Below are positions 1-18,700 of a stretch of 32,000 bases of DNA, in pieces. The stretch is from the NCBI RefSeq assembly GCF_003945235.1, contig NZ_RSDW01000001.1:2370001-2402000 (forward strand), in the 5' to 3' direction. Under the pieces are notes generated by a model. The model had not been told where the DNA came from and made no database searches. It was given only the letters and a program-made list of their open reading frames with translations. Source of the DNA: Edaphobacter aggregans (GTDB taxonomy: Bacteria > Acidobacteriota > Terriglobia > Terriglobales > Acidobacteriaceae). How positions within the stretch are numbered: the first letter of the stretch is position 1; each line of letters opens with the position of its first letter. The position numbers were made by a program, and so were the translations under genes.

Positions 1-450
1 CAGAACGCGGAAGATTTCGGCCAGTAGCGCGAACCGGCTGGGAATGTGGCAGAAGACGTCGCTGGCGAAGATGGCATCGAAGACGGCGGTGTCGTAGGGA
101 AGTTTTTGGGAGATGTCAGCACGCACGAAGCGCACAAGGGGAAGCATGTCTTTGGCACGTGCGAGACGATTGGCGTTGCGGATGGCCTGGGCGTTAATGT
201 CGATGCCTGTGACACGGCAGGCGACTCTTTCGGCGAGATAGATGGCGTAGCCGCCGGAGCCGCAGCCGAGTTCGAGGACGTTGGAATCCTGGTTAAGTTT
301 AAGCTGGGTGGGGATGTGATTGGACTCGTAGGGGCCGCTCCAACTGGTCTGGCCGAGATCGTTGCCAAAAGTGTCGAGACGAATCTGACGGTAAAGCTCC
401 GAGGCGTAGTTTTCGTACGCAATGTCGTAGAGTTCGACCTTGTCGGGCAT
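1..450 (-). CDS. Class I SAM-dependent methyltransferase, 5' portion (150 codons); gene runs off the left edge of the window
   Basis: Absent from the ORF track because no stop lies in the window. My reverse-strand translation from the ATG (comp 448-450) stays open to base 1: MPDKVELYDIAYENYASELYRQIRLDTFGNDLGQTSWSGPYESNHIPTQLKLNQDSNVLELGCGSGGYAIYLAERVACRVTGIDINAQAIRNANRLARAKDMLPLVRFVRADISQKLPYDTAVFDAIFASDVFCHIPSRFALLAEIFRVL. It contains the Rossmann-fold SAM-binding motif I (VLELGCGSGG). A GGAGGAG Shine-Dalgarno (comp 458-464) lies 7 nt before the ATG. Track ORF 46..531(+) is its antisense shadow. Confidence 0.8.
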   Translation of the reverse strand, partial: MPDKVELYDIAYENYASELYRQIRLDTFGNDLGQTSWSGPYESNHIPTQLKLNQDSNVLELGCGSGGYAIYLAERVACRVTGIDINAQAIRNANRLARAKDMLPLVRFVRADISQKLPYDTAVFDAIFASDVFCHIPSRFALLAEIFRVL

Positions 451-621
451 GCTATGGCTCCTCCACGTGATGCTGTCCGAAGGCGTGCAAGAAGAGAGCA
501 CATCTTAGCAGGTGTCGGCAGGAGTTGGTAGATAGTCATGGGGACGTGCGACCCGCTTCCTTTGTGGGAGACGGGTCATGATGGATTAAAAGGTTATAGT
601 TCCTGCTGCCATCCATGTAGC

Positions 622-1218: not shown

Positions 1219-1226
1219 CGCTCCTC

Positions 1227-4200
1227 CTATTCCACAATCAGCGTTACGGTAGTGTTGTGAACCAAGTTGCCGCTGGTTGCGGTGATGGTAATAACATAGG
1301 ACTGCTGCGTCTGGTTGAAGTAGCCGCCGGTTCCACAGCCAGCGATTGCTCCAAACGATATCAGCGCCAGCAGCAGCCACAAAAGCGCGCCAGGTCGTCC
1401 GCGTGCTCTTCTCAGTAGCGCGAAGGGTACTAGCAGCGTCGCAAATACCAGTGGCGTGCGAGAGCTCCGGTCGAGTGTGGCATTCTGTTTTGGAACGTTG
1501 ACGGTCATGGTCGATTGGACGCCGTCAGCTCCCGGTATTACAGGATTAGGACTGAAGGTGTAGCTTGCTCCCGCGGGTAGTCCCGACGCGCTCAGCGTTA
1601 CCGGACTGTTGTATGGAAGATTCAGATCAGGGATCTTGATTGCAAAGTTAGCAGCCCCCCCAGGCGGGACCGTCTGCGGCGGCGTGGGGCTTATGACGCC
1701 GAAGTCCGGCGCGAGGATAGTCACACTGACCAACGCGAACGGCGTTATTGTTGTGAAGTTTGTATCACCGCTATATGAAGCCGTGAGCGTGCGTTCTCCA
1801 ATAGGTAGCGTGGTGGTAATCAGCGTCGCCGTGCCATTGACGATCGCCACGGTGCCGAACGCCGTGCCGCCGTCGTAGAAGGTAATGGTCCCGGTTGCGC
1901 CTGCATTGACCATTGCCGTCAGCGTTACCGGATTACCCTGCACAGTTTGGCTTGGTGACGCAGTCAAAGTGACGAAAGTGCTCGCCTTGGTGATCGTCAG
2001 GGTGCCGTTCACTGCACGGGTGATGTAGTTTGCAAGTGCCGATCCGGTAGCGGAGGGGACGATGGGATACGTTCCCGGAGGAGAGTTGGTAGTCGCGATC
2101 GTAGATGCCGAGAAAGTAAAGGTGTCGTTGAGGACGGCACCCGTGATTGTTCCGGTAAAGGCTGGATTTGCCTCCCCAAAGACGCGCGAAGCATTGTTCG
2201 CAGACAGCGCCAGTAGGGCAGGAGTCACCGTCACGGCAAAGTTGACGGCTTGGCTAACTCCGGCTGTCATGGCAGTTGCAACAAAATCTCCAACATGTGT
2301 TCCGGTTACTATTACGCTGGCCTGTCCGCTGCCGTTAGTTGTTACGGTGGCGCTCGGCGAGAAGGTTAGGCCTGCTCCCGCGAAGGTCACCGTGGCCCCT
2401 GCAACCGGATTCCCAATGGCATTCGCGACCATAACAACCAGAGCCTGCGCGAAGGCCGTTCCACGGACAGCAGACTGGGCGTTGCCACCCACCAACTCGA
2501 TAGTGGTTGGCAGACCGGTAACAATGCTTACCGCAACGGGGCTGCTCGAGCTAACCCCGTTATTTGGGTCTCCAGAATAAGCAGCGATGATGTTGTGGGT
2601 TCCCAAACTCAGGGAACTGGTCGAAAAGGTAGCCAGCGCATTCGCATCGATGCCTACTGTCCCGAGTATTGTCGTTCCATCATAGAAGATAACTGTGCCC
2701 GTCCGGGCGGGCACGCCTGCGGATATGGGTGGAGCTACCTCCGCCGTAAGGACGACCGGTTGGCCCTGCAACTGCGGGTTCACATCAGCGGTAACGGTAG
2801 TTGTCGTTGACAGTGGAGCGATCAGGAAGAGATACGCCGTAAGGTTGCCTATCTCCGGCGAGTTTCCACCACCATTCCCACCATTAGTGTTGTGGCCGCC
2901 CTCGTTACCGTATGAGGCGTAGACGTAGAGCGTGTGCAGTCCAACCTGTTGTGGCTGGCTGAGATTAACAGTGAAGCTTGCTGGGTTTGTTCCACTTGAA
3001 CTCGTCATCGTTGCAAGATTCGATGGGTTCGCGCCGTCCACCTCGTAGTACACCTGCGTCGGTGGTGGATTGGTTACGGTGTGGCCGCTATATACACTCG
3101 TGCTGCTGAACACACTATTCACATTCACCGTGAAGCTAGGCGTGCTGTTAGCTGTCTGGAAGATATTTGTCGTCGAGATGGTCAACGGATCGACCACCCC
3201 GGCGATGGTTGTGGTCAGTGGCACGGTCTGATGTCCGTCCACATCGATTACCGCCACGCTGCCAGGGTTTGAGGGACCGGGTGAGAGATTTGTATAGATT
3301 TTGTTGATCGCAGGGTACAACAACACCTCCTGAGGACACGACCCATTTGCAGCGTTGGAACAATTCGTTGTTAGTGCGTTTCCCACAACCGGTACTGTGC
3401 TCGTGACAATGTTGCTTGCTCCATCAATAACCATCATGTTTCGGCTGTTGAAGTTCTTGACATAGACATTGTTGGTGATTGGGTTTACCGCGATCCCCCA
3501 GGGAAAACTTCCCGAACTCGACGTGTTTATTTGGGTCGGGCTATTGGTCACTCCATCGAGAACGGTCACGCTTCCGCCCTGAGGGAAAGGTAGACCGGAG
3601 TTTGAGTTGGAGACATAGATCTTATTTGTCTGCTGGTTTATTGCTATCTCCCGGGGGAAAATGCCTGCTATCGGGTTGGCGATGACCGTGTCAATGGTTC
3701 CGTCGATCACCGAAATTGTGCCGGGAATGCTGCTGTTGTTAAAAGTCGTATTGGCGACATAGATCCTGTTCGTTGCAGGATTCACTGCTATTCCCTGTGG
3801 GCCGGTTCCAACCGTCATCGTGCTCGTGACAGAGTTGCCCGCACCATTTATCACTGAAACGGTGTTGTCGGAAAAATTAGAGACGTAGATTTTGTTGGTT
3901 GCTGCGTTCACCGCGATGCCAGAGGGTGAGAAACCCACGGTTACCGTGGCAGCGATGGTCTCGGTTGTTTCGTCGATCACCGAAACGGTGTTGCCGTTAG
4001 TTAGCGGAGAGAGTGAGATAAAGGGATGGGCGACATAAACCTTCCCTGTCACCGAGTTTGCCGCTACTGCTTGAGGGTAAGGCCCCACAGTCAAGGTGTT
4101 TATGACAGAATCGCTCGCTGAGTCGATCACCGAAACGGTGCCGTCTCCAAAGTTGGTGACGTATACCCTGTTCGTCACTGGATCGACGGCGGCCAAAACA

Positions 4201-5498
4201 GGTTGCGAACCGACACTCACCGTCGCAGTAACGGTATTCGTCGCTACATCAATCGCTGTCACGGTGTCGCTGTCGGTATTGGCGGTATAAATCTTGTTGG
4301 TCACTGGGTTCAACACGACAGTTTGAGGAGAGTCCCCCGTAGGTACAGGAGACGTCGAGATCGGCGCATTGATCGCACCGTCGATCACCGATACGGTACC
4401 GGGGACAGAAGTGTAGACCCTATTGGTCACCGGGTTCGCCGCCACGATCAGGACGCTGCTTCCGGTTCCCACCGCCGCCACGGTAACAGTAGCGTTTGTT
4501 GATCCGTCGATCACAGTTACGGAAGCATCAGAAGGATTGCTGCCACCGGTAAAAGTGAAATTGCCCACATAGATCTTGTTGGTTACCGGGTTCACCGCCA
4601 ACGTATAGGGAAAGGTGCCCCCCATCGTCAGAGTGCTCGTCGTGTAATTGTTCGTTCCATCGATCACAGTAACGGTGTTGTTCGGGCTGCCAGCAAAGTT
4701 GAGTACGTAGGCCTTGTTGGTTACCGGGTTCACGACCACCATGGCGGGTACGGTTCCCACCGTTGGATGTGCGATAGCCACGTTGGTCGTTCCGTCGAAC
4801 ACCGTCAGGGTTCCAGGGCTGGCGACGTAGAACTGGTTGGTCACCGGGTTCACCGCCACCGATTGGGGGGCCCCTGATACCGCCGCCGCGGTGGGCGTAT
4901 TGCTCGCTCCATCGATCACCGTCACGTTTCCCGCGCCGGTGACGGCATTGGCTACATAGACCTTATTGGTCACCGGGTTTACTGCTATCGCGTATGGGCG
5001 ATTCCCGGTTGTAGGCACGGTAGCCGTCACGTTGTTGGTGGCGCCGTCGATCACAGTCACGTTGTTGCTGTCGAGGTTGGCGACGTAGATTTTGTTGGTC
5101 AGGGGATTCACCACGACGTTAAGGGGGGTAGTTCCCACAGGCACCGTGGCGGTAACACTATCGCTTGCACCGTCGATCACCGTTACGGTGTTGTCGGTCG
5201 TGTCGGTAACATAAATCTTGTTGGTCACCGGATTCACTGCCGCCGTAGTGGGATTAGTTCCCGCAGTCACCGCCTTTGTTACATTCGTGACACCGTTGAT
5301 GACGTTGACCGTGTGAAGAGCACCTCTGCTGGGAACGTAGATCTTGTTGGTCACTGGGTTCACGGCCACCGAAAGCCCTCCACCGGTGGTAGGCACAGCG
5401 ATTTGAGCCCTAAGTACCGTAGAAGCAGCGAACACACTCAACAACAGTAAGAGCCGATTGAGAACAGGGCGGCAGCGAAGAACGAGGGACGGCACCAT
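1227..5498 (-). CDS. Giant secreted YVTN beta-propeller repeat / Ig-like / MBG-domain protein with an unusual C-terminal membrane tail (1423 aa)
   Basis: Uninterrupted 1423-codon ORF. GAGGAGG SD (comp 5506-5512) lies 7 nt before the ATG. Sec-type signal LLLLLSVFAASTVLRAQ/IAV. About 16 repeats with core NPVTNKIYV...TVTVIDG (YVTN-family 40-residue beta-propeller repeat type). These are followed by several Ig-like repeats (pattern PVVLTAEV...IFYDGTTILGT...LGTHNIIAAYSGD). One MBG-type domain (LSANNASRVFGEANPAFTGTITGAVLNDTF...YPIVPSATGSALANYITRAVNGTLTITKA). Then a terminal Ig-like domain interrupted by two hydrophobic helices (see findings). Confidence 0.92.
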   Translation of the reverse strand: MVPSLVLRCRPVLNRLLLLLSVFAASTVLRAQIAVPTTGGGLSVAVNPVTNKIYVPSRGALHTVNVINGVTNVTKAVTAGTNPTTAAVNPVTNKIYVTDTTDNTVTVIDGASDSVTATVPVGTTPLNVVVNPLTNKIYVANLDSNNVTVIDGATNNVTATVPTTGNRPYAIAVNPVTNKVYVANAVTGAGNVTVIDGASNTPTAAAVSGAPQSVAVNPVTNQFYVASPGTLTVFDGTTNVAIAHPTVGTVPAMVVVNPVTNKAYVLNFAGSPNNTVTVIDGTNNYTTSTLTMGGTFPYTLAVNPVTNKIYVGNFTFTGGSNPSDASVTVIDGSTNATVTVAAVGTGSSVLIVAANPVTNRVYTSVPGTVSVIDGAINAPISTSPVPTGDSPQTVVLNPVTNKIYTANTDSDTVTAIDVATNTVTATVSVGSQPVLAAVDPVTNRVYVTNFGDGTVSVIDSASDSVINTLTVGPYPQAVAANSVTGKVYVAHPFISLSPLTNGNTVSVIDETTETIAATVTVGFSPSGIAVNAATNKIYVSNFSDNTVSVINGAGNSVTSTMTVGTGPQGIAVNPATNRIYVANTTFNNSSIPGTISVIDGTIDTVIANPIAGIFPREIAINQQTNKIYVSNSNSGLPFPQGGSVTVLDGVTNSPTQINTSSSGSFPWGIAVNPITNNVYVKNFNSRNMMVIDGASNIVTSTVPVVGNALTTNCSNAANGSCPQEVLLYPAINKIYTNLSPGPSNPGSVAVIDVDGHQTVPLTTTIAGVVDPLTISTTNIFQTANSTPSFTVNVNSVFSSTSVYSGHTVTNPPPTQVYYEVDGANPSNLATMTSSSGTNPASFTVNLSQPQQVGLHTLYVYASYGNEGGHNTNGGNGGGNSPEIGNLTAYLFLIAPLSTTTTVTADVNPQLQGQPVVLTAEVAPPISAGVPARTGTVIFYDGTTILGTVGIDANALATFSTSSLSLGTHNIIAAYSGDPNNGVSSSSPVAVSIVTGLPTTIELVGGNAQSAVRGTAFAQALVVMVANAIGNPVAGATVTFAGAGLTFSPSATVTTNGSGQASVIVTGTHVGDFVATAMTAGVSQAVNFAVTVTPALLALSANNASRVFGEANPAFTGTITGAVLNDTFTFSASTIATTNSPPGTYPIVPSATGSALANYITRAVNGTLTITKASTFVTLTASPSQTVQGNPVTLTAMVNAGATGTITFYDGGTAFGTVAIVNGTATLITTTLPIGERTLTASYSGDTNFTTITPFALVSVTILAPDFGVISPTPPQTVPPGGAANFAIKIPDLNLPYNSPVTLSASGLPAGASYTFSPNPVIPGADGVQSTMTVNVPKQNATLDRSSRTPLVFATLLVPFALLRRARGRPGALLWLLLALISFGAIAGCGTGGYFNQTQQSYVITITATSGNLVHNTTVTLIVE
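3290..5370 (-). repeat. Array of about 16 in-frame YVTN-type beta-propeller repeats (period roughly 125-130 nt)
   Basis: The motif GTGAACCCGGTGACCAAC-like (V-N-P-V-T-N) recurs on the coding strand near 5350, 5230, 5100, 4970, 4845, 4725, 4580, 4430, 4305, 4180, 4050, 3900, 3775, 3640, 3480 and 3300. The protein shows repeated NP[VLA]TN[KR][IV]YV ... VTVID units. Boundaries are approximate. Confidence 0.8.
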
Positions 5499-6180
5499 TG
5501 GGAGACCTCCTCAACGCATTTGTCTGGGAATAAGGGTGCAGTCCGACCGAGGTGGTGTATCTCCATCGTCATATCCGTTCCGGTTGAGAGCCAGAACTGC
5601 AAGGACACACCGTCGCGCAAGATCAAGGAACCGAAGTTGGCACGCGGCGAAGACTCACTCCCGCCTGCCAGTGCTCAGCACTTTACATGCAAGATAGTCG
5701 AGTTGTCACGCACTGTGTCCAAATTCGAACTTGGTTCGGAGTTCTATAAACAAAAGTCGGCGCTGGAGATTTAGCCATCAATACGAGCGCCCCGTTTGAG
5801 GCTTCAGCATTCCTCGGATCGCGGCCAATTGCTCGTTTGTTCCAAATGTAGGTAGTCTGCCTACGTCGCGTCGAGTTCTAAATTGAAAAATAGGCTGGGG
5901 ACGGGGCGGTTCTGAATGCCAAAGCCAAACCGAATTTGCTGGCAGCTTCAGCGATGTTTAGAAAGTAGGGTTAGGACGTCCCGTCATCGCATTCGCTTAC
6001 CTGACGAGGATTCGACGCAAACCGCCTCTGCTGCTTGGTCAGAAACACCTGAAGTTGCAAAAAAACGATTATTGGAGAACTGCGAGGGATTCGGCTAATC
6101 AAAATCGAGCGCAATCTGAATAACTTAGAGAAATCTATCAATACGTTAGAGAGCGGAAAACAACCCGACGCAACGCTTAT

Positions 6181-6210
6181 TGGACCCGTAATGGACCCAC
6201 AGTTGGACCC
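6181..6210. promoter_or_regulatory. Three phased direct repeats TGGACCC (spacing 11 and 12 bp); candidate transcription-factor site
   Basis: TGGACCCgtaaTGGACCCacagtTGGACCC. Copies start at 6181, 6192 and 6204, inside the gene-free spacer between the two cassettes. Function is unproven. Confidence 0.3.
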
Positions 6211-6618
6211 ACGCTGGCGCACGCGATTGACAACGCGGCACGAACGGCAACCAGCTAGGGTTACCTAAGCACTACGTCATCTTGACTGGCCTTGACTCGC
6301 AATGACCTTCAAGTGCGTACGCTTGAAGTTCCGATAATCCGTTTCTAGGAATTACAAATTCACTTGTCCGAGAAGCCGACATTACGGGCCAAGTGACGAA
6401 AAGAGCGTTTCCCGGTACTAATCCGTAGTGCGGGTTTCTACTCATGTTCAATGAGTGCTAAGTCATGTTCTCATCAACTGACAATTCTGGGTGATTTGGC
6501 AACCGTTTGCGCCTCCTTAGGGATTACGATTACCAATCGGCGAGAACATCTGCCCGGAGATTCGTGATGCAGGTATGGCTCCGCGATCCTTGAAATAATT
6601 GTCGACCAGATCGCCTTG

Positions 6619-7206
6619 CTACTTCCTGCTGCCACGGAAGAGAATCCCTGCCCCGATGCGCAACTGGTTCTGGTTGTCTCCCTGCAAGTTGCGTAGCGAG
6701 GTGTAGTTGTAGTCGGCCTTCAGCGCACGTATCCAGATATGCCTTGAGATAGCCACATCCAGGCCTCCGCCGATGGCCATGGAATATGAAGTATCGTAAC
6801 TGGTCGGCAATTTCCCCACCCGTGCCGGGAAGTAGCTGTCGAAGCCGTGGACACCGCCGAACAACGCCTGAGCGAAGGGTTGGAACCGTGTGTGATTGGG
6901 CCAGCGCATGCGAACCCCACCCATACCGGAGACCAGGCTCAGGCCGGCATTGAAGTTGGGGATATTGCCCGTGTGATGGCCGGCTACTTCCGCCAAGACC
7001 GAAAAGTTCCTCCATACCGGATACGAGATTTCACCCGTGCCGCCGGACATCCAGAAGCAGCCGCAGCCGCCTACCGGAGCGTTGGCGCGCAGTTCGCTGA
7101 ACGTCACCGATGCGTCGATGGTGTTGGCTGGTTTCTGTTGCGCTACCACTGCTGGGGCGAGCGATAGCAGCAACGGGTAGACGAAGATGCGTAGGCGTCG
7201 GTTCAT
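6619..7206 (-). CDS. Small outer-membrane beta-barrel protein, paralogue B, with a CGC motif
   Basis: Track ORF 6619..7368 trimmed to the ATG at comp 7204-7206. The junction to the upstream giant gene (GAA TAG GAGGAGCG ATG AA) is identical to cassette A. Signal MNRRLRIFVYPLLLSLAPAVVA/QQ. It has the same strand pattern and the same ANAPVGGCGCFWMSGG segment as paralogue A. Confidence 0.85.
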   Translation of the reverse strand: MNRRLRIFVYPLLLSLAPAVVAQQKPANTIDASVTFSELRANAPVGGCGCFWMSGGTGEISYPVWRNFSVLAEVAGHHTGNIPNFNAGLSLVSGMGGVRMRWPNHTRFQPFAQALFGGVHGFDSYFPARVGKLPTSYDTSYSMAIGGGLDVAISRHIWIRALKADYNYTSLRNLQGDNQNQLRIGAGILFRGSRK

Positions 7207-7214
7207 CGCTCCTC

Positions 7215-10200
7215 CTATTCGACAGTCAGGGTTACGGTTGTGCTGCGAATCAGAGTTCCGCTTGTGGCCGTCACGGTGATCGTGTAGGTCTGTTCGGTCT
7301 GCGAGAAGTAGCCGCCCTCTCCGCATCCCGACACAGCGCCGAGCGAGACCAGCGCCGCCAGCATCCATATCAGCAGCTTCTGTGGTCGCCTGCGATATCG
7401 CTTCAGACGGGCAAACGGCAACAACAGCAACGCGAACGCGACAGGTCCGAGGCGACGGCTGCGCGAAGCCATATGGCTTTGCGGAGGAACGCTAACGGTA
7501 AACGTCGTATTGGCTCCCGATGCTCCCGGTGTGACTGTGGCGGGGTTGAAGGTGTAGGTCGCGCCCGGTGGCAGGTTCGTCGCGCTCATCGTCACAGCAT
7601 TGGTGAACGACCCATTCATCGAACTGATGACGATGGTGAAGTTCGCCGAAGCTCCCGGTGGGATGAGCTGCCGTCCCGTGCTCGAGGCCACGGTAAAGTC
7701 TGGCGGCGGCGGGGTGACCACCAGTGTGACCGGCGGTGAGGTGGCCGGCGCGAAGTTCGCGTCGCCGCTGTAGATTGCCGTGATGATGTGCGTCCCTGGA
7801 GCGAGCGTCGTCACCAGCGTCACGGTTATGCCGTCCGTCCTCCCGGTGTTGGTTGGGACCGGCACGGTTCCGAGCACGGTTGTGCCATCATCAAAGGTCA
7901 CGGTTCCAGTGGCCCCGGCCGGCACCGTCGCGGTCAGTGTCACCGAGCTGCCTCCCACTGACGGGCCCGTCGGCGGTGTCACAATTATGTTGTCTATCGT
8001 CAGAATTCCGTTCACGAAGGCGAAGCCGTAGTTCGTCGCAGACAACGTGCCCTGCGTCACCATGATCGGATAGCTGCCAACCGGGGAGGCCGTCGTTGCC
8101 GTGGTCGATACAGCCGCTGCTCCCGAGACCACGGTAGAGGTATCGCCGTTGACGAAGCCGGTGATTGTCGTCGTGAACGGCGGATTCGCCAGACCAACCA
8201 CTCGCGAGGCATGGTTCGCTGTGACGGTGAGGGTCGCCTTGGTCACGGTCAGGATTCCGTTCACGAAGATGAAGCTGTAGTTTTTCGCAGCCAGCGTCCC
8301 CTGCGTTGCCGTGATCGGATAGGCGCCGACCGGGGAAGCCACTGTTGCCGTCGTCGATACAGCAGCCGCACCCGAGACTACGGCAGGGATATCGTCGTTG
8401 AGGAAGCCGGTGATTGTCGTCGTCAAGGGTGGATTCGGCTGACCATACACCCGCGAGGCGTTGTTCGGGGTCACGGTTAGCGTCGCCGGGGTCACGGTCA
8501 GTGTGCCGTTCACGAAGGCGAAGCTGTAGTTTGTAGCAGCGAGCGTTCCCTGCCCGATCGCGATGGGATAGCTGCCTACAGGTGAACTCTCGGTCGCCGT
8601 GGTCACCACCGTGGGCGCGCCGGTGACTGAGCTGGCTGGCGTGTCGCCGCCGACGAAGCCGGTGATCGTATAGGTCAGCGCTCCGTTATGCCCACTGAAC
8701 ATGCGTGTACTGTTGTTTGCGGTTACCGTCAGGATCGCGGGAGTGACCAGTTGCAGCAGTACGTCCGAAGTCGAAGCCGCGTGCGATCCGTCTCCGCTGT
8801 ATGCTGCTGTAATCGAATGTGTTCCCTGCATCAGCGCACTGGTCGCGAAGACCGCAACTGCTCCCGCAAGGGTAACGGGGGCACCCAGATTCGTTGCACC
8901 ATCCTTGAATTGAATGGTGCCTGTAGCTCCGCTGACCACGGTCGCAGTGAACGTCACTGTCTGGCCGAAGTCAGAGGGGTTATCCGAAGAGACGAGAGAA
9001 ACTGCGATCGGCCCTGGACTTACCGTCAGGAAAACCGGAGCACTCAAGCTACCGTCGCGGTTCGAGTCGCCGATAAAAACTGCCGTCAGCCTATGTGGCG
9101 ATCCCGCCACAGTGAAAGTGGACACTGTGAGGCTCGCTTCGCCCGTGGACGAGAGCGGGACTGCTCCTAACAACGTGGTGCCATCGTAGAAGTTCATGGT
9201 GCCCGTCGCTGTCGCGCCGCCTAACGTAAATGGGGTCACATTGGCTGTCAAAGTCACGGGCGTTCCGAACACGATCGTATCTGCCGTCGAAAGCACCAGT
9301 GTTGTCACTGTGGTCACCGGCGTAGCCGTCAATGGAATTGTTGGCGAGGTGCTACCACCAAAGTTCGCGTCGCCCGGATAGATTGCCTCGACATTGCGCG
9401 TCCCGCTACCTGGGATGCTTACCCCAGGTAACACCGCTGTCGTTGTTTGCGTCACCTGGTTCAGCAAGATGCTGATGTCATTAGCGCCATAATTTGGCAC
9501 CGCCAGATCCGCGATACCGTCGCCGTCGAAGTCGCCAACGGCTACTGCGTAGGGGAGATGGCCAACCGTGATCGGCGATCCCGAAGCTAGCGCGAAGCCG
9601 CCACTGCCGTTCCCCAGGAATATGCTCACGTCATCAGCGTCGAGATTCGCCACCGCCAGATCGACAATGCCGTCACCATTGAAGTCCCCCACGGCCACGT
9701 CGTTAGGACCGGCACCCGTCGCGACCGGCGATCCCGGGGCTGGCGAGAAGCCGCCATGACCGTCCCCCAACAATATGTTCATGTCATTCGAGAGATAATT
9801 CGTCACCGCCAGATCCGCGATGCCATCACCGTTAAAGTCTCCCACGGCGACGGATTGGGGATGATTACCCGCCGTAACGGGCGATCCTGGGGCCGGCAAG
9901 AAGCCACCACTGCCGTTTCCTAGCAATATGCTCACATTGGCGGAGGTCTGGTTTGTCACCGCCAGATCGGCGATGCCATCTCCATTGAAGTCACCCACGG
10001 TAATAGCGTAGGGACGAGTACCCACCGGGACTGTCGACCCCGAAGCCGAGAAGCCGCCACTACCGTTCCCTAGCAATATAGTCACGTCATTAGAACCCCA
10101 ATTTGCCACGGCTAGATCCGCAATGCCGTCGCCATTGAAGTCCCCTATGGCCACACCAAAGGGATCGGTGCCCACCGCAATCGGTGATCCCACAGCTGGC

Positions 10201-13200
10201 GAGAAGCCGCCACTACCGTTCCCTAACAATATGCTCACGTTAGTAGAGCCCGAATTTGCCACGGCCAAGTCCGCGATGCCGTCGCTATTGAAGTCCGCTA
10301 CGACCACACCAAAGGGGCTGGGGCCAACCGCGATTGGAGATCCTAGAGCTGGCGAGAAGCCGCCATGGCCGTTCCCCAGCAGTATGGTCAAAGTATTATC
10401 GGTATCATTTGCCACCACCAGATCCGCGATGCCATCGCCATTGAAGTCTCCAATGGCTGCAGCCACTGGTAAGTTGCCCACTGCGATTGGAGATCCCATA
10501 GCATTCGCAAAGCCGTGCCCCAGCGTTGGGGTCCCTGACGTCGCCGTTCCCAGAACACTATTGCCGTTTGTGGTATCGATGAAAGATACGCTGCCCGTGG
10601 GGCCTAGCGTAGCGTTCCCGGTACCCACGACGGTTGCTATCAGCGTGTAGTTCCCTGGAGTGCCGCTGGAAGTAATGGCTGTCGTCGTCGGGAAGGTTGC
10701 CAGTGGCGACACTGTTACTGCTTGTGCGGAGGAAATGCTCGCCGTATATGCTTTTGTCCCCGCAAAGACCGCAACATAGTTATGACTGCCGACACTCGGA
10801 ATAAATCTCAGTGCTGCAGTCCCTGCGCTCGTCAACTGCGCTGTACCCACGACAGCCAGGCCTGTGCAAGACGGCGCCGTTGCATCGCAGAATGTCACCA
10901 AGCCCGGATGGACGGCTGCACCACTGGTCGTCACCGTCGCAGTCAGGGTCATCACTGTCTGTGCCGCTAACGGTGAACCTGGCGACACTGCCAGCGAGGT
11001 CGCCGTCGGAAGCGAAGTAACCTGCTGTGTCAGCACATCCGAAGTCATCGGAAGATGACTTCCATCCCCGCTGTAGACCGCGGTTATCGGACGCGCTCCT
11101 GGCGTCAACGAGCTGCTTGTGTAAGCAGCAACTCCCGCCGCAAGAGTCACAGGTCCGCCCAGGTTCGCTGCACCATCCCTGAATTGAATAGTGCCTGTGG
11201 CTCCGCTGGGCACGGTCGCCGTAAACGTCACCGACTGACCAAAACTGGAAGGATTATCCGAAGAGACAAGGGAAACTGTGGGGGACGATGGACTTACCGT
11301 TAGCGAAACCGGACCGCTTGTGCTGGAGAGGAAGTGCGTGTCACCTTCATAGAGCGCCGTCAACGTGTGAGTACCTACCGCGAAGCCAGGAATCCCTCCG
11401 CTTGGCACCGTCAGGCCCGCTTCGCCAGCGGATGAGGTCGGCACTGTTCCTAACAACGTGGCTCCATCGTAGAAGCTCATGGTGCCCGTCGCAGTCAAGC
11501 TGCCTGCCGTGTATGGGGCCACAGCGGCCGTCAAAATCACCGGCATTCCGAACGCAATCGTGTTTGACGTCGAAAGCACCAGCGTGGTCGCCGTTGCTAC
11601 ACGCGAGCCCGTCAGTGGAATTGTTGGCGAGGTGCTGTCAGCGAAGTGCGTATCTCCGGGATAGGTTGCCTCGACAGGGCGAATCCCGCTGCCTGGTATG
11701 CTCACCCCGGGTAACACTGCCGTCGCCGTCTGCGTCACTTGATTCAGCAATATGCTTACGTCATTCGAGTCGAAATTTGGCACAGCCAGATCCGCAATGC
11801 CATCCCCATTGAAGTCACCAATCGCTACGGCATAGGGCCAAGTGCCCACCGCAACCGGCGATCCCGGAGCCGACGCGAAGCCGCCACTGCCGTTCCCCAC
11901 CAAGATGCTGACATTGTTGGATTCGAAATTTGGCACAGCTAAATCCGCGATGCCATCCCCATTGAAGTCACCAACGACTACATCATTGGGAAAACTGCCC
12001 ACAGCGACAGGCGATCCCGTAGCTGGTGCGAAGCCACCACTGCCGTTCCCCAGCAAGATGCTCACAGTATCCGCAGTTACATTTGCCACCGCCAGGTCCG
12101 CATGGCCATCTCCATTGAAGTCACCAACTTCAACAGCAACGGGAAAAGTGCCCACCGCGACCGGCGATCCCGGAGCTTGCGTGAAGCCGCCTCCACCGTC
12201 GCCCAGCAAGATGCTCACATTACCATCTCTTTGATTTGTTACCGCCAGATCCGCGCGGCCATCCCCATTGAAGTCGCCAACGGCCACACCATAGGCCCCT
12301 CCACCCACCGCGACCGGCGATCCCGAAGCTTGTGTGAAGCCGCCAGTGCCGTCCCCCAACAAAATGCTCACATCGTTACTGGAGAAATTTGTCACCGCCA
12401 GGTCTGCGATGCCGTCCCCATTGAAGTCCCCCGCCGCCACAAGGTAGGGATTGGTGCCCACAGCGACCGGCGATCCCGGAGCCGACGAGAAACCGCCACT
12501 GCCGTTCCCCAGCAATATGGTTACCGTGCCAGAGTCCGTATTTACCACCGCCAAATCCGCGTGGCCGTCACCATTGAAATCCCCAACGGCCAGACCATAA
12601 GGCCCGGCACCAACCGTAATCGGTGATCCCGTAGCTGGTGCGAAGCCGCCACTGCCGTTCCCCAGCAATATGCTTATAGTAGAGTCCGAATTCGACACCG
12701 CCAGGTCAGCGTGGCCGTCGCCATTAAAGTCCCCAACGGCTGCACCTACGGGCAGCTCGCCCACCTCGATTGGAGATCCCGTAGCATTTACAAAGCGGTG
12801 CCCCAGCGTTGGGGATCCCAGCGTCGCCGTTCCCACATTATTGCTGTTTGTAGTGTCGATGAACGATACGCTGCCTGTCGGGCCTAGCGTAGCGTTACCG
12901 GTACCCACGACGGTTGCCGTCAGCATGTAGGCCCCGACACTGCCGCTGGAAGTAATGGCGGTCGTCGTCGGGAAGGTTGCCGGTGGGGATACCGTTAATG
13001 CTTGCGCTGAGGAAGTGCTCGTCGCATACGCTGTTGTCCCCGCAAAGATCGCAATATAGTTATGACTGCCGATGGCCGGAGTAAACCGCAGCAACGCAGT
13101 CCCTGCGCTCGTCAATTGCGCTGTACCCACGACGGCCAGGCCCACGCAAGGCGGCGCCGTTGCCTCGCAGAATGTCACCAGCCCCGGATGGACAGCTGTA

Positions 13201-13388
13201 CCACTGGCCGTCACCGTCGCCATCAGGGTCATCACTGTCTGCGCCGCCAAAGGTGAACTCGGCGACACTGTCAGCGAGCTCGCCGTAGTAGTTTGCGCCC
13301 GCATTATCGTTCCGGGCAGCTGGACGGTCACCAGGAGAAGAACCACCTGTATCACACGGCGTAACTCACAGGCACAGAAAAGCTTCAT
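7215..13388 (-). CDS. Giant secreted FG-GAP/VCBS beta-propeller (2 x 7 blades) / Ig-like / 3x MBG protein with the same C-terminal membrane tail (about 2057 aa)
   Basis: The track ORF runs 7215..13418. I prefer the ATG at comp 13386-13388 (MKLFCACELRRVIQVVLLLVTVQLPGTIMRAQ/TTT) because AGGAGG (comp 13395-13400) lies 6 nt upstream. There are two blocks of seven GDFNGDG[IH]ADLAV...ILLGNGSGGF blades (integrin-alpha FG-GAP type). These are flanked by Ig-like repeats, then three tandem MBG-type domains, an Ig-like domain, and a terminal split Ig-like domain with a TM hairpin. Confidence 0.92.
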   Translation of the reverse strand: MKLFCACELRRVIQVVLLLVTVQLPGTIMRAQTTTASSLTVSPSSPLAAQTVMTLMATVTASGTAVHPGLVTFCEATAPPCVGLAVVGTAQLTSAGTALLRFTPAIGSHNYIAIFAGTTAYATSTSSAQALTVSPPATFPTTTAITSSGSVGAYMLTATVVGTGNATLGPTGSVSFIDTTNSNNVGTATLGSPTLGHRFVNATGSPIEVGELPVGAAVGDFNGDGHADLAVSNSDSTISILLGNGSGGFAPATGSPITVGAGPYGLAVGDFNGDGHADLAVVNTDSGTVTILLGNGSGGFSSAPGSPVAVGTNPYLVAAGDFNGDGIADLAVTNFSSNDVSILLGDGTGGFTQASGSPVAVGGGAYGVAVGDFNGDGRADLAVTNQRDGNVSILLGDGGGGFTQAPGSPVAVGTFPVAVEVGDFNGDGHADLAVANVTADTVSILLGNGSGGFAPATGSPVAVGSFPNDVVVGDFNGDGIADLAVPNFESNNVSILVGNGSGGFASAPGSPVAVGTWPYAVAIGDFNGDGIADLAVPNFDSNDVSILLNQVTQTATAVLPGVSIPGSGIRPVEATYPGDTHFADSTSPTIPLTGSRVATATTLVLSTSNTIAFGMPVILTAAVAPYTAGSLTATGTMSFYDGATLLGTVPTSSAGEAGLTVPSGGIPGFAVGTHTLTALYEGDTHFLSSTSGPVSLTVSPSSPTVSLVSSDNPSSFGQSVTFTATVPSGATGTIQFRDGAANLGGPVTLAAGVAAYTSSSLTPGARPITAVYSGDGSHLPMTSDVLTQQVTSLPTATSLAVSPGSPLAAQTVMTLTATVTTSGAAVHPGLVTFCDATAPSCTGLAVVGTAQLTSAGTAALRFIPSVGSHNYVAVFAGTKAYTASISSAQAVTVSPLATFPTTTAITSSGTPGNYTLIATVVGTGNATLGPTGSVSFIDTTNGNSVLGTATSGTPTLGHGFANAMGSPIAVGNLPVAAAIGDFNGDGIADLVVANDTDNTLTILLGNGHGGFSPALGSPIAVGPSPFGVVVADFNSDGIADLAVANSGSTNVSILLGNGSGGFSPAVGSPIAVGTDPFGVAIGDFNGDGIADLAVANWGSNDVTILLGNGSGGFSASGSTVPVGTRPYAITVGDFNGDGIADLAVTNQTSANVSILLGNGSGGFLPAPGSPVTAGNHPQSVAVGDFNGDGIADLAVTNYLSNDMNILLGDGHGGFSPAPGSPVATGAGPNDVAVGDFNGDGIVDLAVANLDADDVSIFLGNGSGGFALASGSPITVGHLPYAVAVGDFDGDGIADLAVPNYGANDISILLNQVTQTTTAVLPGVSIPGSGTRNVEAIYPGDANFGGSTSPTIPLTATPVTTVTTLVLSTADTIVFGTPVTLTANVTPFTLGGATATGTMNFYDGTTLLGAVPLSSTGEASLTVSTFTVAGSPHRLTAVFIGDSNRDGSLSAPVFLTVSPGPIAVSLVSSDNPSDFGQTVTFTATVVSGATGTIQFKDGATNLGAPVTLAGAVAVFATSALMQGTHSITAAYSGDGSHAASTSDVLLQLVTPAILTVTANNSTRMFSGHNGALTYTITGFVGGDTPASSVTGAPTVVTTATESSPVGSYPIAIGQGTLAATNYSFAFVNGTLTVTPATLTVTPNNASRVYGQPNPPLTTTITGFLNDDIPAVVSGAAAVSTTATVASPVGAYPITATQGTLAAKNYSFIFVNGILTVTKATLTVTANHASRVVGLANPPFTTTITGFVNGDTSTVVSGAAAVSTTATTASPVGSYPIMVTQGTLSATNYGFAFVNGILTIDNIIVTPPTGPSVGGSSVTLTATVPAGATGTVTFDDGTTVLGTVPVPTNTGRTDGITVTLVTTLAPGTHIITAIYSGDANFAPATSPPVTLVVTPPPPDFTVASSTGRQLIPPGASANFTIVISSMNGSFTNAVTMSATNLPPGATYTFNPATVTPGASGANTTFTVSVPPQSHMASRSRRLGPVAFALLLLPFARLKRYRRRPQKLLIWMLAALVSLGAVSGCGEGGYFSQTEQTYTITVTATSGTLIRSTTVTLTVE
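7990..8740 (-). repeat. Three tandem 249-bp repeats encoding MBG-type domains
   Basis: The marker CCGTTCACGAAG(G/A) recurs at 8008, 8257 and 8506, exactly 249 bp apart. The protein units are ...LTVT(A/P)NN(A/S)(T/S)R...TTTITGF...SPVG(S/A)YPI...TNY(S/G)F(A/I)FVNG(T/I)LT(V/I). Confidence 0.85.
9456..10510 (-). repeat. FG-GAP blade array B (7 units, about 153 nt / 51 aa period)
   Basis: Seven [GA]DF[ND][GS]DGI[AV]DL[AV]VAN... units are read in the protein. ATTGAAGTC markers lie 153 nt apart, for example at 10287 and 10440. Confidence 0.85.
11740..12790 (-). repeat. FG-GAP blade array A (7 units)
   Basis: Seven GDFNGDG[HIR]ADLAV... units are read in the protein. This is the counterpart of array B, one super-module upstream. 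Confidence 0.85.
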
Positions 13389-13666
13389 CTGCGTCCTCCT
13401 GACGGATGTCTTGCACAAATTCAGTTGTGAGGTTTTCGTGTCTTTGTTCGGGGTCTACTGATCCGGGGAGAATGGGATTCCGGGAGCATGTGGAATCAGT
13501 CTGACAGTACAAACCCAAGGGATGAACAGCGAGGTATACCGGAACTTACGCATCGGAGTCAATACCTCGAGAACAACTTCCAGTGTTATCGCCAACATTC
13601 GCCTTGTAAGAGGTATTTGGGGGCGCTGCGATCTCGTTCATTTGCGGAATCACGACATCATAATGC

Positions 13667-14208: not shown

Positions 14209-15312
14209 CTATGCGGCTGCCGGCAGTGTAGCCCGACTGCTTGGCCGTAGTGGCACATAAACCTCTCTGCTCACCCATAGTCGATGCAGCAGGACGGCCA
14301 GCTTACGCGCGACCGCGATCACTGCGCGTTTCTTCCCGCGCTTGCCTCCGTGCTCAGCCAGCTTCATGCCCCATCGGCGCAGGTCGCTGTCGACTCCCCA
14401 GGGACCGAGTACGTGGTGGGCAGCCTGCACCAGAAGTGCTCGTAGATACGGATCGCCCTCTTTGCTGATGTGCATCTGCGGCTCGCTCTGTCCCGAGTTA
14501 CGCCTTCCAGGCTGGAGACCTACGTAGCAGGCTGCATCCCGGCTCTTGCGAAAACGGTGTGGATCTTCCAGCGTCAACATGTACGTGAGGGCGATTAGCG
14601 TTCCCACTCCCTTGATCTGCTTCAACTGCTCTGCTTCGGGATATCTGTTCCGCGCCATGGACTCAAGCAGCTGGTCGTACTCGCAGATCCGTTCGCTGAC
14701 CGACTCTATCTCTCTCATCATCGGTTCCAGTGCACGCTTCAACTCCGGACTCAGATCCTGGGCCGCCTGCGGCTTCATCCCTGGTGCGTTGCATCCGCGG
14801 AGCCGCTCCCCGTAGGACTTCGTCAGACCGCGCGCCGCGTTGACCAACATCGTCCGTGTGCGGACCGGAGCGGCCCGCGCCCGGATCACCGTAAGATCCG
14901 CTTGTGCCTCGGCGCTCCGATGCTTCACTGGGCACAGCAGCTGCGGATCGATCCTTACGAGTCGCGCAAGTGTCCTAGCGTCGAGCCGATCATCCTTGCG
15001 CCTGCTCTCCCCGATTAGCCGCACGCTGCGCGCGTGGGCCACGATCGCCTCATGACCGAGTTCGCTGAGCAACCGACTTACCCACGGTGAATGCGTTCCG
15101 GTCTCCAGTGCGATACGGCTCCGAGGCATCACTCCGAAAACCTCTTTTATCGCCTTGGGCGTCGTGCTCACCTTCTGCTCCAGCAGCACGTCACCTGCAT
15201 CATCCAACACGCAATAAAAGCTCGCCCTGTCGCCCAAATCCAGACCGACGGTCAGGCGTCCGTCCTGCTTGTTGAGTGTCTCCTGCATCATCGTGGTGGT
15301 AAGCTTTTTCAT
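14209..15312 (-). CDS. IS110-family (DEDD) transposase/recombinase, 367 aa
   Basis: N-terminal RuvC-like DEDD region (VGLDLGDRASFYCVLD ... IALETGTHSPW ... KDDRLDARTLARL). C-terminal Transposase_20-type region (LKQIKGVGTLIALTYMLTLEDPHRFRKSRDAACYVGLQPGRRNSGQ...ISKEGDPYLRALLVQAA). GAGGAG SD directly upstream. Confidence 0.92.
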   Translation of the reverse strand: MKKLTTTMMQETLNKQDGRLTVGLDLGDRASFYCVLDDAGDVLLEQKVSTTPKAIKEVFGVMPRSRIALETGTHSPWVSRLLSELGHEAIVAHARSVRLIGESRRKDDRLDARTLARLVRIDPQLLCPVKHRSAEAQADLTVIRARAAPVRTRTMLVNAARGLTKSYGERLRGCNAPGMKPQAAQDLSPELKRALEPMMREIESVSERICEYDQLLESMARNRYPEAEQLKQIKGVGTLIALTYMLTLEDPHRFRKSRDAACYVGLQPGRRNSGQSEPQMHISKEGDPYLRALLVQAAHHVLGPWGVDSDLRRWGMKLAEHGGKRGKKRAVIAVARKLAVLLHRLWVSREVYVPLRPSSRATLPAAA

Positions 15313-15748: not shown

Positions 15749-18700
15749 TTAGAAATCGATTCTCAATGCAAGTTGGCCGGTACGATTGCCCGCATTTTCC
15801 GCTGTTTGCGGAGCGCTTAAGACACCGAAGGTCGTTGAGTTGTCGATTTGTGTGGCGGGCGGTGCAAAGTTCGTGTGGTTTAGAACGTTGGTGAAAGTAC
15901 ACTCAAAGCGTGCTTTCACTCGTTCAGTGAACGCATAGTTCTTCGCCAGTCCAAGCGCAACGGCTGCTGTGCCTGGCCCCTGAAGGATGCCGACGCCTGC
16001 ATTTCCGAACCGGCCTGCTCCAACTGGAGTGGGAGAGAACGCAGCCAGGTTGAAGTACTGGCCACGTGACAGTCCTTTGTAATAGTCGTGCGAAATGACG
16101 TCGGGACGGAGCGTGGCACCACGATTCACGACATTGGTATTGGACTGGTCGTAAGACGTGCTGATGTTGGGTGTGAGCCATGGTCCGGTCTGGAGCAAGG
16201 TAACGTTATTGAGCTCCCATCCGCCGAGGAGTGCGTTCCTCCAGCCGCCGGTGTTGAGGAACGCCCTCCCGTCGCCGAAAGGCAACTGGTAGAGACCAGT
16301 CAGCAGGAACCGGTTGCGCCGATCTCCTTCTACGTTCCCGTAGTCGCTGGCGATGTGGAAACGGTCGGTAATCGGAATGCCGTAATTAACTTCACCGGCG
16401 AATGCTGTTGGAGTGCTTCCCTGGTTGTCCGCCAGATTCTTGGCCAACGTGTAATTCGCCTTGAAGTACAGGTCGTGGGCCATGCGGTGTGTTCCCTCTA
16501 CTTGCAGGGCCTCGTAGTTTGCTTTACCGGCGTTAAAGGTACTGAAGAGTGTAAACCAGTTAGGATAGGGCGCACGCGGATCAACGTAAGGGCTGGTTGC
16601 TGTTGTCTGATACGGTGATGTGCTTGCGGGAATCTGGTTCAGGTCTTCTGTGATGTTTAAGCGGTACGAGTGCATACCAACATAGCTGACACGCAGAGTA
16701 TCGTTGCCGGTTAGCTGGCGTTCAACAGTGAGATTCCATTGGTTCGACTGCGGGTCGCGGTAGTTGGGGGAAACTCCTTGATCAAGTCCGCCACCACCAT
16801 ACTGGATACCGGCAATTGACGGAGCGGTGTTCGGGAATTGGATCAAGGGCGTTCCAGCCGCGGTGAGTGCGTTTGTATATGTGTGCAGATTTGATGTCGG
16901 GTTGCCACTGTTATTGAACGAGAGCGGCCCAAGGTTGGTCATTGTAAATACACCGAACCCGGCGCGGATTACGGTCTTCGTATCGTTGAATGGACGATAG
17001 GCCAACGAGAAACGTGGTTGAAAGTTTCCGAAGTAAGTCTTACGCAGACCCTGAGGCAAGTGATCCTGACTTGCTGTTACGTAATTTGAACAGGGCAATG
17101 CGGTGTAACCGAGACTGCACGCATTGAAGGACTGTTGGAATGCCAGGTTCGAGCCTTGAATCTTCTGCTGTGCAAGGTAGGAGGACAGGTCGTCCGGTAC
17201 GACGATCGAGTTGTTCTTCTGGTCAAAGTTGGCCAGATTGCCTCCATCTTCGCGCATCGCTGGAAGAACCTGCCAACGCAAGCCATAGCTCAGAGTAAGT
17301 CTGCTGTTTAGTTGAAACTCGTCTTGCGCAAACAGCCCGTATTGCCAGGCGCTACCGCCTACATCAGGACTTGATACCGCAAAGAATAGGGTCGTAGGCG
17401 TGCCTTCAAGAAAATCTCCAAATGCAGTGCCGGTGAATGTCGGTTGAAAGGTAAACTGCCCAAAATCATCAGACGGCAGGAAGAGCTCAACATCAAAGTA
17501 ACGGACACGGCGAGCATCAATGCCTGCTTTAAGCGTGTGCTTGCCGATGGTGTAAGTTACGTTGTCAGTAAATTGCATGGTCTTCGACTGAGTTACACCG
17601 GTCTTGTCGCGACCGATCGGGGTGAAGCCATTGCCGGCACTGAAGTTAAATGTTGGGAACGCGTGTGTGGTTGGGTGTTGGCTAATGTCCACGCCACTGA
17701 GATCGAGTTGCGTCAGGGCATTCGCGCCTTCTATGGGGAACCCAACACTAGTAGTCGCATTCGTGAAGCCATATCGAAATTCGTTCACGAGCTTCGAAGT
17801 GATGGTGTAGGTATAGGAAACGAGCAGGCTGCGATTATGGATGCTATCAGCATCGTTTGGTAGAAGAGGGTTGGCGTAGTCCTGCGTGATGTTCTTCCTG
17901 CTGAATCTCGCATAGGCCGATTGCTTCGCGGTGATCGTCTGGTCGATGCGGAGATCAGCCCCATCCGTTCGGGCCGGGGTCGATTGAAAGTTTTCGTAAT
18001 TGTAGTTGGATTTTCCTGTTACGTTTGGCAATGGATAGTATGCAAGCAGTGCGATGGCGGTCGGATTGATATTACTTTGCGGAATGACCGGGCTGCCGAG
18101 GGCAGTCAGGTCTCCGTTGCGCTCTGCCTGTGTGGGAACCAAGAACTGCTGGGCGACAGCGGTCGTGCGGCGATTGCCCTCGTAGTCGGCAAAGAAGAAG
18201 GTTTTGTCCTTGCCGTTATATAGACGCGGGATGTGCACAGGGCCTCCGAGCGATCCTCCAAATGTATTGAATCGTTTTGGAGCCTTGCCGTTGAATCCAT
18301 AAGGATTTGCATCAAGAGCACTGTTCTGCAAGTATTCAAATGCGCTGCCGTGATACTGATTTGTGCCACTCTTGGTCGTGAAGGTAACGTCCCCGACCTG
18401 CGAAAACTCGGCGCTATTGTTGAAGGCCGTCACTCGGATAGCCGAGATTCCTTCCTGTGAAGGATAGGCGTCCTGCAGCGCACCATTCTGTCGCACATTC
18501 GCGGTGGAGATGCCATCAACCGAGAAATTCACCATTGCGCCGCTCGCGCCACTGAGGGCTATATTGCCCGAACTGTCCTGTTGCACATTTGCCGAGAGTG
18601 CAAGCGCGCCAAGAGGGCTCGTCGTGGTTGCGCGGTTATTCAGGGGAAGTTGTGTAATGAGCTGATTGTCCTTCGAGTCGCTTAGAGTTCCGTTTTCCGT

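Follow-up and report, generated by a model that had tools for sequence, protein, structure and literature searches.

In the 32,000-nucleotide (nt) stretch of the Edaphobacter aggregans genome analyzed here (contig NZ_RSDW01000001.1, positions 2,370,001 to 2,402,000; hereafter, the window), two large minus-strand genes, A and B, encode adhesin-like proteins that share a C-terminal tail, and each is followed by a gene for a small outer-membrane beta-barrel (barrels A and B). We propose, with a probability of about 0.7, that tail B is a lipo-invert module of NCBIfam family NF058595, inserted in a loop of the last immunoglobulin (Ig)-like domain of large secreted adhesin-like proteins of Terriglobia. 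With less confidence, we propose that its lipidated end could be docked on the barrel. The segment that an earlier note on this DNA had singled out (7218-7720) comprises the last ~168 codons of gene B, and the tail sequence quoted there is the exact C-terminus of the open reading frame (ORF) at 7215-13418 (-). The coordinates of all features are collected in Table 1.

The two tails align position for position, as had been claimed, with two single-residue gaps only, at 60% identity over 83 amino acids (aa; E value, 2e-29). Against shuffled tails in which each hydrophobic or basic block was kept in place, the alignment reached a z-score of 16, and the similarity therefore reflects homology and not shared hydrophobicity. 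The preceding Ig-like part aligns as well (76 residues, 50% identity). All the shared motifs listed in the earlier note were found in both tails, although what it took for a terminal Glu is, family-wide, either Glu or Gln (160 of the 196 tails on which our family statistics are based). Its statement that only domain types are shared further upstream was wrong, since the last ~350 aa form one colinear homologous block (A, aa 1085-1423, versus B, aa 1719-2067; BLASTP, 50% identity over 354 aa; E value, 2e-72). Within this block, the ~190 residues just upstream of the split Ig-like domain (MBG_2 and Big_3_5) align at ~50% identity, and 142 aligned residues there are 53.5% identical between A and B, much as in the Ig-like part.

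Purifying selection on the tail, also proposed earlier, was borne out. Between A and B, the ratio of nonsynonymous to synonymous substitution rates (dN/dS) was ~0.19 for the tail and 0.18 from the Cys to the end, with synonymous sites saturated, versus 0.38 for the N-terminal strands of the split Ig-like domain (N-part). When gene B was compared with its relatives at loci L001 and L002, dN/dS was 0.13-0.39 for the terminal hairpin (dN, 0.04-0.08) and 0.21-0.26 for the helices, and the hairpin dN was the lowest among the gene segments in most comparisons. The conservation is clearest at the family level. In an alignment of 50 homologues covering the split Ig-like domain and the tail, the Pro of helix 1 and the lipobox Cys are the invariant columns, and 14 of the 16 columns conserved at 90% or more belong to the tail, not to the Ig N-part. 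A recent duplication or gene conversion, in which case the similarity would carry no information on constraint, might be suspected from the position of the two cassettes, ~6 kb apart in the same orientation, and from the 19-nt gene junction (GAATAGGAGGAGCGATGAA) that is identical in both. However, the tails share only 62% of their nucleotides, and the proportion of synonymous differences (pS), 0.6-0.7 between A and B and 0.68 in the tail, is at saturation. Furthermore, the barrels are 71-74% identical at the protein level with a dS of ~1.7, and the closest relatives of each cassette are found in other genomes and not in the other cassette. The saturated synonymous divergence thus rules out a recent gene conversion, the caveat raised when the selection was first proposed, and leaves a recent copy with a negligible probability. 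These sequence comparisons support functional constraint on the tail rather than recent copying.

According to the family models, tails A and B are members of an already curated, uncharacterised NCBIfam family in whose name the anchoring is termed putative. NCBIfam r20 and Pfam models were run against the full proteins A and B and both tails (E<=0.01). The model NF058595.1 ('invert_tail', lipo-invert putative C-terminal anchoring domain; curated cutoff, 37 bits) matched tail B with 52.9 bits and tail A with 50.7 bits, and it also matched all 50 aligned homologues. Its 113 positions cover the last strand of the N-part, helix 1, the loop, helix 2, the Cys, and the hairpin. Both tails have the family layout (helix, basic loop, helix, lipobox Cys, and short tail) and its extreme C-terminal placement, and they are indistinguishable from the family. 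Among the Pfam models, none covers the tail, and there was only a weak DUF5980 match on the Ig N-part. A literature search found no internal or C-terminal lipobox of this tail type; the sole match for a C-terminal lipoprotein signal turned out to be an ordinary signal, whose Cys starts the mature protein.

The anatomy of the family agrees with a lipoprotein-type signal in several respects. Across the 196 tails, the median number of uncharged residues is 17 in helix 1 and 19 in helix 2, and the medians for the basic loop between them are 9 residues, 5 Lys/Arg, and 0 Asp/Glu. The lipobox that follows has L/M/V/I at position -3 (179/196), S/T/A at -2 (162/196), and G/A/S at -1 (192/196), followed by the Cys, after which position +2 is Gly in 150 of 196 tails and Asp in 1. 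The two tails in the window carry the sequences VSGC (B) and IAGC (A), both of the form [LVI][ASTVI][GAS]C. A PROSITE-type lipobox rule, applied with the loop treated as the N-terminus, holds for 173 of 196 tails. The Cys is followed by 28-50 residues (median, 36). Taken together, the tail Cys is probably lipidated. It is important to consider that the Cys is not N-terminal as in a type II signal (residue 2032 of 2067 in the ORF of B and 1388 of 1423 in A), and the lipoprotein-type reading therefore leans on helix 1 restoring the N-in orientation. Separately, stand-alone small lipoprotein genes made up of the loop, helix 2, and hairpin only, which would have favored a two-chain product, were looked for, and the short matches obtained (51-94 aa) were contig-edge fragments or gene calls starting at an internal Met. 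A regular-expression scan for bona fide N-terminal lipoproteins in ~0.8 Mb from the same genomes, with which the tail lipobox could be compared, gave only 16 candidates, mostly false.

The two helices appear to interrupt a folded domain. An AlphaFold2 model of the last 171 aa of protein B was built from the 50-sequence alignment, and the fold placement was read from its confidence pattern. The strands of the N-part (residues 11-80) have a predicted local distance difference test score (pLDDT) of >95 and the hairpin (147-170) one of 98, and between them lie two helices (95-109 and 117-133) with a pLDDT of ~70-78. Foldseek searches with this model returned Ig-like domains (a sialidase linker domain and SbsC S-layer domains) in alignments of ~164 columns, more than the ~70-residue N-part alone could supply. 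Additionally, four unsplit homologues (P0071, P0109, P0116, and P0117) have the same domain, hairpin included, with a short loop replacing the two helices, and the hairpin motif also matches internal Ig/cadherin-like repeats in unrelated proteins. Since the domain exists without the helices and the hairpin occurs in ordinary repeats, the two helices are best read as an insertion in an Ig-like loop. The model thus supports the view that the N-part strands and the terminal hairpin form one Ig-like sandwich, split by this insertion.

From these sequence features, which are what we observe, we infer lipidation, cleavage, outer-membrane docking, and surface display. The passenger (the protein upstream of the tail) would cross the inner membrane via Sec, directed by its N-terminal signal peptide, until helix 1 halts the transfer, while the Lys/Arg-rich loop would remain cytoplasmic. 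Helix 2, placed after the basic loop and ending in L-[ST]-G-C, would act as an internal lipoprotein-type signal and re-export the last ~35 residues. The Cys would then be lipidated by Lgt, and LspA would probably cut just before it. The resulting short lipopeptide would be the beta-hairpin, that is, the last two strands of the Ig-like domain, and because the hairpin completes this domain, the lipid would be held to the passenger via a folded domain. In the last step, the barrel would dock the lipidated end in the outer membrane.

The linkage between tail and barrel was quantified in the best 80 loci, located with a 16-sequence alignment. A barrel homologue lies directly downstream on the same strand in 61 of them, typically 7-19 nt past the stop codon. 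The 19-nt junction, identical in both cassettes amid genes saturated at synonymous sites, combines a stop codon, a Shine-Dalgarno sequence, and an ATG, an arrangement indicative of translational coupling. Three places were also reached by starting from barrel proteins: at two of them, a giant with Big_3_5/MBG_2 domains lies immediately upstream (gap, 8-11 nt), and at the third, the upstream 751-aa product has no Pfam record. The AlphaFold2 model of the barrel has eight strands, four long loops, and three short turns, and its Foldseek matches were NspA, Ail, OmpA, OmpX, and OmpW. PF13505 (OMP_b-brl; gathering cutoff, 28.7 bits) scored barrel B above the cutoff with 34.2 bits and barrel A below it with 24.4 bits, in spite of the close similarity of the two barrels, and no NCBIfam model matches the partner barrel.

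Within the cassette, the barrel gene is under the strongest constraint: its dN/dS was 0.06-0.12 in six pairs drawn from A, B, and loci L001, L002, L004, L007, and L012. Its most conserved region is loop L1 (consensus, NAPxGxCGCFxMNGG), with a conservation of 0.75 versus 0.50-0.71 for the strands, which is unusual for a loop. L1 is predicted to be extracellular by the general topology rule for outer-membrane proteins. In L1, barrels A and B have a Cys-Gly-Cys (CxC) pair. Of 56 barrels, 48 have this pair, and the remaining 8 have lost its two Cys jointly. The pair may serve as a disulfide, in metal binding, or as a partner contact.

Features of the tail vary with the barrel. Of 62 barrel-linked tails, 59 have a Gly-aromatic motif in the 10 residues that follow the Cys, versus 5 of 17 barrel-less tails (Fisher P = 4e-8); when counted by 50%-identity clusters, presence to absence was 10/1 for barrel-linked versus 0/6 for barrel-less tails (P = 6e-4). 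The LLxP[FL] motif of helix 1 showed no association with the presence of a barrel (P = 1). Where L1 has its CxC (48 pairs), the first aromatic residue lies at +5/+6 in 46 (CGGGF or CGxGGYF), and for the 8 barrels without Cys, the first post-Cys aromatic of the tail lies at +7 to +10. Next to barrels that have lost both Cys, the tail still has its own, which argues against a mere disulfide-partner role. Accepting somewhat less than even odds, we consider that the downstream barrel could be the cognate partner on which the lipidated end docks in the outer membrane, with contact through L1. The complete design is more doubtful: a two-gene anchoring system of Terriglobia in which an Ig-like domain would be split by LspA, its triacylated hairpin of ~36 residues would be held by strand complementation, and its Cys-Gly-Gly-Gly-aromatic end would be docked by L1, tethering giant adhesin-like proteins to the outer membrane. 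The tail part of this design is anticipated by the NCBIfam name; the barrel partner and the docking appear to be uncatalogued in the resources searched.

The adjacency of the two genes in most loci, the co-inheritance of tail and barrel, and the alternating hydrophobic/Thr pattern of the hairpin would also agree with a more direct association, in which the amphipathic terminal hairpin inserts into the barrel or augments its sheet and a hybrid 10-stranded barrel anchors the passenger in the outer membrane. We consider this very improbable. The hairpin is modeled with high confidence together with the Ig N-part, the Ig-like alignments span nearly the whole 171-residue model, and the same hairpin belongs to an ordinary Ig-like domain in the unsplit homologues and recurs in internal Ig/cadherin-like repeats. 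Moreover, the chain ends in Glu/Gln and not in the aromatic residue typical of the beta-signals of outer-membrane proteins, and the AlphaFold2 barrel closes with its 8 strands alone.

Several observations weigh against, or qualify, the reading of tail B as a lipidated, barrel-docked module. Regarding the tail, its identity between A and B (60%) is only modestly above that of the flanks (50-54%); the excess over the flanking Ig-like repeats that the earlier note had called for is thus present but small. Helix 1 of B is short, with 14 uncharged residues, and our literature search found no paper or experiment on the lipo-invert/NF058595 family. Regarding the barrel, none lies downstream of the tail in 19 of the 80 loci, the AlphaFold2 pLDDT in L1 is ~61, and with 8 strands the barrel is too small to translocate a passenger of 1400-2000 aa. 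The 8 Cys-less barrels represent only ~3 independent lineages, and the co-evolution check suggested earlier did not discriminate: the distance correlation between tail and barrel (r = 0.68) is no better than that between Ig N-part and barrel (r = 0.65), which reflects co-inheritance and not specific co-evolution. Consequently, the contact between tail and L1 is suggested, not established. Regarding release, a passenger cut by LspA would still be covalently joined to helix 1, the loop, and helix 2 in the inner membrane, and no protease or sortase gene is conserved beside the cassette, whose neighbors differ among loci.

Some of these points would fit a plain two-helix inner-membrane anchor, in which the hairpin completes the Ig-like domain in the periplasm, the Cys has a structural or disulfide role, with neither lipidation nor cleavage taking place, and the barrel is unrelated or loosely linked. 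Two hydrophobic helices around a positive loop satisfy the positive-inside rule, the passenger stays membrane-bound even after cleavage, and the barrel is missing in the 19 loci mentioned above. Nevertheless, such an anchor would not explain that the whole lipobox is kept, with helix 2 ending exactly in L-[ST]-G-C and a basic n-region at the right distance, or that the barrel is translationally coupled in most loci and has moved along with the tail in a recombinant one. The persistence of the tail Cys where both barrel Cys are lost also speaks against it, and we regard it as unlikely. If the tail were only an inner-membrane hairpin, it would be an ordinary, already catalogued domain.

Still less likely, in our judgment, is that helix 1 and the basic cluster constitute a tripartite sorting signal of the sortase type (PEP-CTERM, GlyGly-CTERM, PGF-CTERM, or LPXTG-like), removed by a dedicated transpeptidase or protease whose gene lies elsewhere. 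Diverse surface-type proteins carry a hydrophobic helix with an Arg/Lys cluster after it, the semiconserved [LM]AP...LLLLPF with its invariant Pro could be a recognition site, and a cut there would solve the release of the passenger. This signal, however, would not be C-terminal, since the chain continues into helix 2, the lipobox, and the hairpin, which is folded and strongly conserved. In proteins A and B and their tails, no match (E<=0.01) was found to PEP-CTERM, LPXTG, GlyGly-CTERM, or the Por_Secre_tail/C-terminal domain of type IX secretion (T9SS), and the absence of a sortase-like gene conserved beside the cassette points the same way. Regarding type V secretion, the Pfam scan of A and B found no autotransporter or POTRA families, and the partner barrel has only 8 strands, against the 12-16 of a translocator beta-domain.

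Tails of this type are borne by very different proteins, with five or more unrelated passenger types in Terriglobia. A profile-free search of 1.84 billion cluster representatives yielded 1507 matches at E<=1e-3 and 156 at E<=1e-10. In the best 150 representatives, the match is almost always at the extreme C-terminus, in proteins of up to 3234 aa. The best 80 loci come from metagenome-assembled genomes (MAGs) of Terriglobia/Acidobacteriaceae and from Granulicella isolates, among them Granulicella paludicola DSM 22464 and Granulicella sp. L60. Since culturable Granulicella strains carry the cassette, the predictions are directly testable. The passengers have FG-GAP, YncE, NHL/teneurin, and DUF7948+SBBP+ASH-type architectures. 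This diversity of unrelated passengers, together with a mosaic locus in an Acidobacteriaceae MAG (L001, 1984-7112), upholds the claim that the tail is independent of its passenger. In L001, the YncE passenger is 65-81% identical to that of A, while the last ~330 aa match B at 75-82% identity and the barrel matches barrel B at 89-91%. An A-type passenger with a B-type C-terminal module and barrel implies recombination that moved the anchor module and the barrel together. The exchanged unit comprised MBG, Big_3_5, the split Ig-like domain, the tail, and the barrel; it is thus bigger than the tail in the window, which qualifies the independence of the tail as such.

Other observations concern particular loci. 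Four (L021, L024, L026, and L030) carry the full tail-barrel cassette in MAGs labeled Acetobacteraceae (Brown_* bins), and either these bins are mislabeled or the family reaches beyond Acidobacteriota. In the barrel-less locus L018, a 359-aa protein with a signal peptide is encoded instead (L018:6724-7803), and the tails of L051, L064, L065, L077, and L079 also have no 195-aa barrel downstream. In one clade, helix 1 is of another kind (no LLLLPF), the post-Cys Gly-aromatic motif is missing, and the downstream genes are unrelated.

Regarding known systems, the tail resembles the type II lipoprotein signals processed by Lgt, LspA, and Lnt in its basic n-region, its uncharged h-region of ~19 residues, and its L-[ST]-G-C, but instead of being N-terminal it follows a putative stop-transfer helix at ~55 residues from the C-terminus, and the predicted lipidated product would be only ~36 residues long. 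It shares with the tripartite signals (LPXTG/sortase, PEP-CTERM/exosortase, GlyGly-CTERM/rhombosortase, and PGF-CTERM/archaeosortase) a C-terminal hydrophobic helix and basic cluster found on many unrelated surface proteins of one lineage. Unlike them, it has no signature motif before the helix, a second helix, lipobox, and folded hairpin follow, and no processing enzyme is encoded near the cassette. The barrel has the fold and size of other small 8-stranded barrels (NspA, Ail, OmpX, and the OmpA N-domain; PF13505) and differs from them in its unusually conserved L1 and its tight linkage to the tail gene.

The closest functional analogy is that with the type B cargo of T9SS, which has cognate PorP/SprF-like barrels, as in SprB-SprF and PG1035-PorP (PMC9143113). 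In both cases, a giant adhesin-like protein has an Ig-like C-terminal domain and is proposed to be anchored on a dedicated outer-membrane beta-barrel (PMC9143113), but the phylum and the barrel family are different, and the T9SS domain has neither membrane helices nor a lipobox. Another analogy is offered by complexes of a lipoprotein with outer-membrane proteins, such as RcsF with OmpA, OmpC, or OmpF (PMC7553776), where a small outer-membrane barrel is associated with a lipoprotein whose N-terminal linker is short and flexible (PMC7553776). In the present case, by contrast, a 36-residue hairpin would complement a giant protein, the dedicated barrel gene is adjacent, and the interaction is a predicted one.

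If the proposal is true, an internal signal near the C-terminus would represent a new way to lipid-anchor the C-terminal end of a protein, and a domain that stays folded across the cleavage site of a signal peptidase would be an unusual case of natural split-domain design. Likewise, the tightly linked barrel would represent an outer-membrane partner specific to its cargo, beyond the T9SS of Bacteroidota. Acidobacteria, which have many giant adhesin-like proteins to display, are among the most abundant soil bacteria. Neither the coupled barrel nor its relation to the post-Cys linker seems to have been catalogued, and the two make the system experimentally tractable.

Table 1. Features of the two cassettes and their surroundings, in positions of the window
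Feature	Position	Strand	Description
Gene B	7215-13388	-	2057 aa from ATG at 13388; ORF to 13418 (2067 residues); N-terminal signal peptide, two FG-GAP/Big_3_5 units, three MBG_2 domains, C-terminal tail
Block colinear with gene A	7218-8264	-	Last MBG_2, Big_3_5, split Ig-like domain, and tail; aa 1719-2067 (BLASTP)
Split Ig-like N-part of B	7479-7712	-	PPPPDFTV...TFTVSVPPQ; AlphaFold2 strands 11-80, pLDDT >95
Tail B	7218-7478	-	From linker to end; aligned with tail A
Variable linker of B	7452-7478	-	SHMASRSRR, from last N-part strand to helix 1; lowest conservation in two alignments
Helix 1 of B	7410-7451	-	LGPVAFALLLLPFA; hydrophobic, putative stop-transfer; AlphaFold2 helix 95-109; P105 invariant in 50 sequences
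Basic loop of B	7377-7409	-	RLKRYRRRPQK; predicted cytoplasmic, doubling as n-region of the lipoprotein-type signal
Helix 2 and lipobox of B	7323-7376	-	LLIWMLAALVSLGA-VSGC; Cys codon 7323-7325, Cys invariant
Post-Cys linker of B	7290-7322	-	GEGGYFSQTEQ; Gly-rich, with aromatic pair
Terminal beta-hairpin of B	7218-7289	-	TYTITVTATSGTLIRSTTVTLTVE; last two strands of split Ig-like domain; AlphaFold2 strands 147-157 and 160-170, pLDDT 98
Junction of gene B and barrel B	7204-7222	-	GAATAGGAGGAGCGATGAA; last Glu codon, TAG stop, GGAGGAG Shine-Dalgarno, barrel B ATG
Barrel B	6619-7206	-	195 aa; signal peptide; 8-stranded OmpX/Ail/NspA-like outer-membrane barrel
Loop L1 of barrel B	7053-7082	-	NAPVGGCGCF; predicted loop
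Gene A	1227-5498	-	1423 aa; signal peptide, YncE/NHL-type beta-propeller passenger, Big_3_5, MBG_2, tail
Split Ig-like domain and tail of A	1230-1712	-	
Ig N-part of A	1485-1712	-	
Helix 1 of A	1413-1457	-	
Basic loop of A	1395-1412	-	
Helix 2 and lipobox of A	1335-1394	-	IAGC
Post-Cys linker of A	1302-1334	-	
Hairpin of A	1230-1301	-	
Junction of gene A and barrel A	1216-1234	-	Identical 19 nt
Barrel A	622-1218	-	198 aa; 71-74% identical to barrel B
Tandem duplication in gene B	8640-13295	-	~760-aa unit
Stretch between barrel B and gene A	5499-6618		~1.1 kb
ORFs overlapping barrel B end	6530-6635	-	Spurious
Sigma-70-like site	5680-5709	-	Weak
IS110-family transposase	14209-15312	-	Directly upstream of gene B
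CarboxypepD_reg + OMP_b-brl_4 protein	15749-19192	-	Giant outer-membrane barrel
Histidine kinase and response regulator pair	19434-21583	+	
Large serine recombinase	22290-23774	+	Beyond the IS110 gene
RNase R	27556-30339	-	

Apart from the spurious ORFs that overlap the end of barrel B, the ORFs in the stretch from barrel B to gene A are all short (53-84 aa). The GC content of this stretch (0.53-0.54) is below that of the neighboring gene B (0.58-0.62), and gene A presumably has its promoter region there. A single weak sigma-70-like site was located within it; in a promoter and terminator scan of positions 300-7500, the sites were not above chance expectation. In the rest of the neighborhood, neither the giant outer-membrane barrel nor the kinase/regulator pair nor RNase R recurs beside the cassette in other loci.

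Gene B itself contains an internal tandem duplication, in which the two copies are 70% identical over 759 aa and each unit consists of Big_3_5, seven FG-GAP repeats, and Ig domains. The closest orthologue of gene B (L002, 1313 aa) has a single copy of this unit. The transposase and the recombinase listed in Table 1 are mobile-element genes that adjoin the duplicated cassettes.

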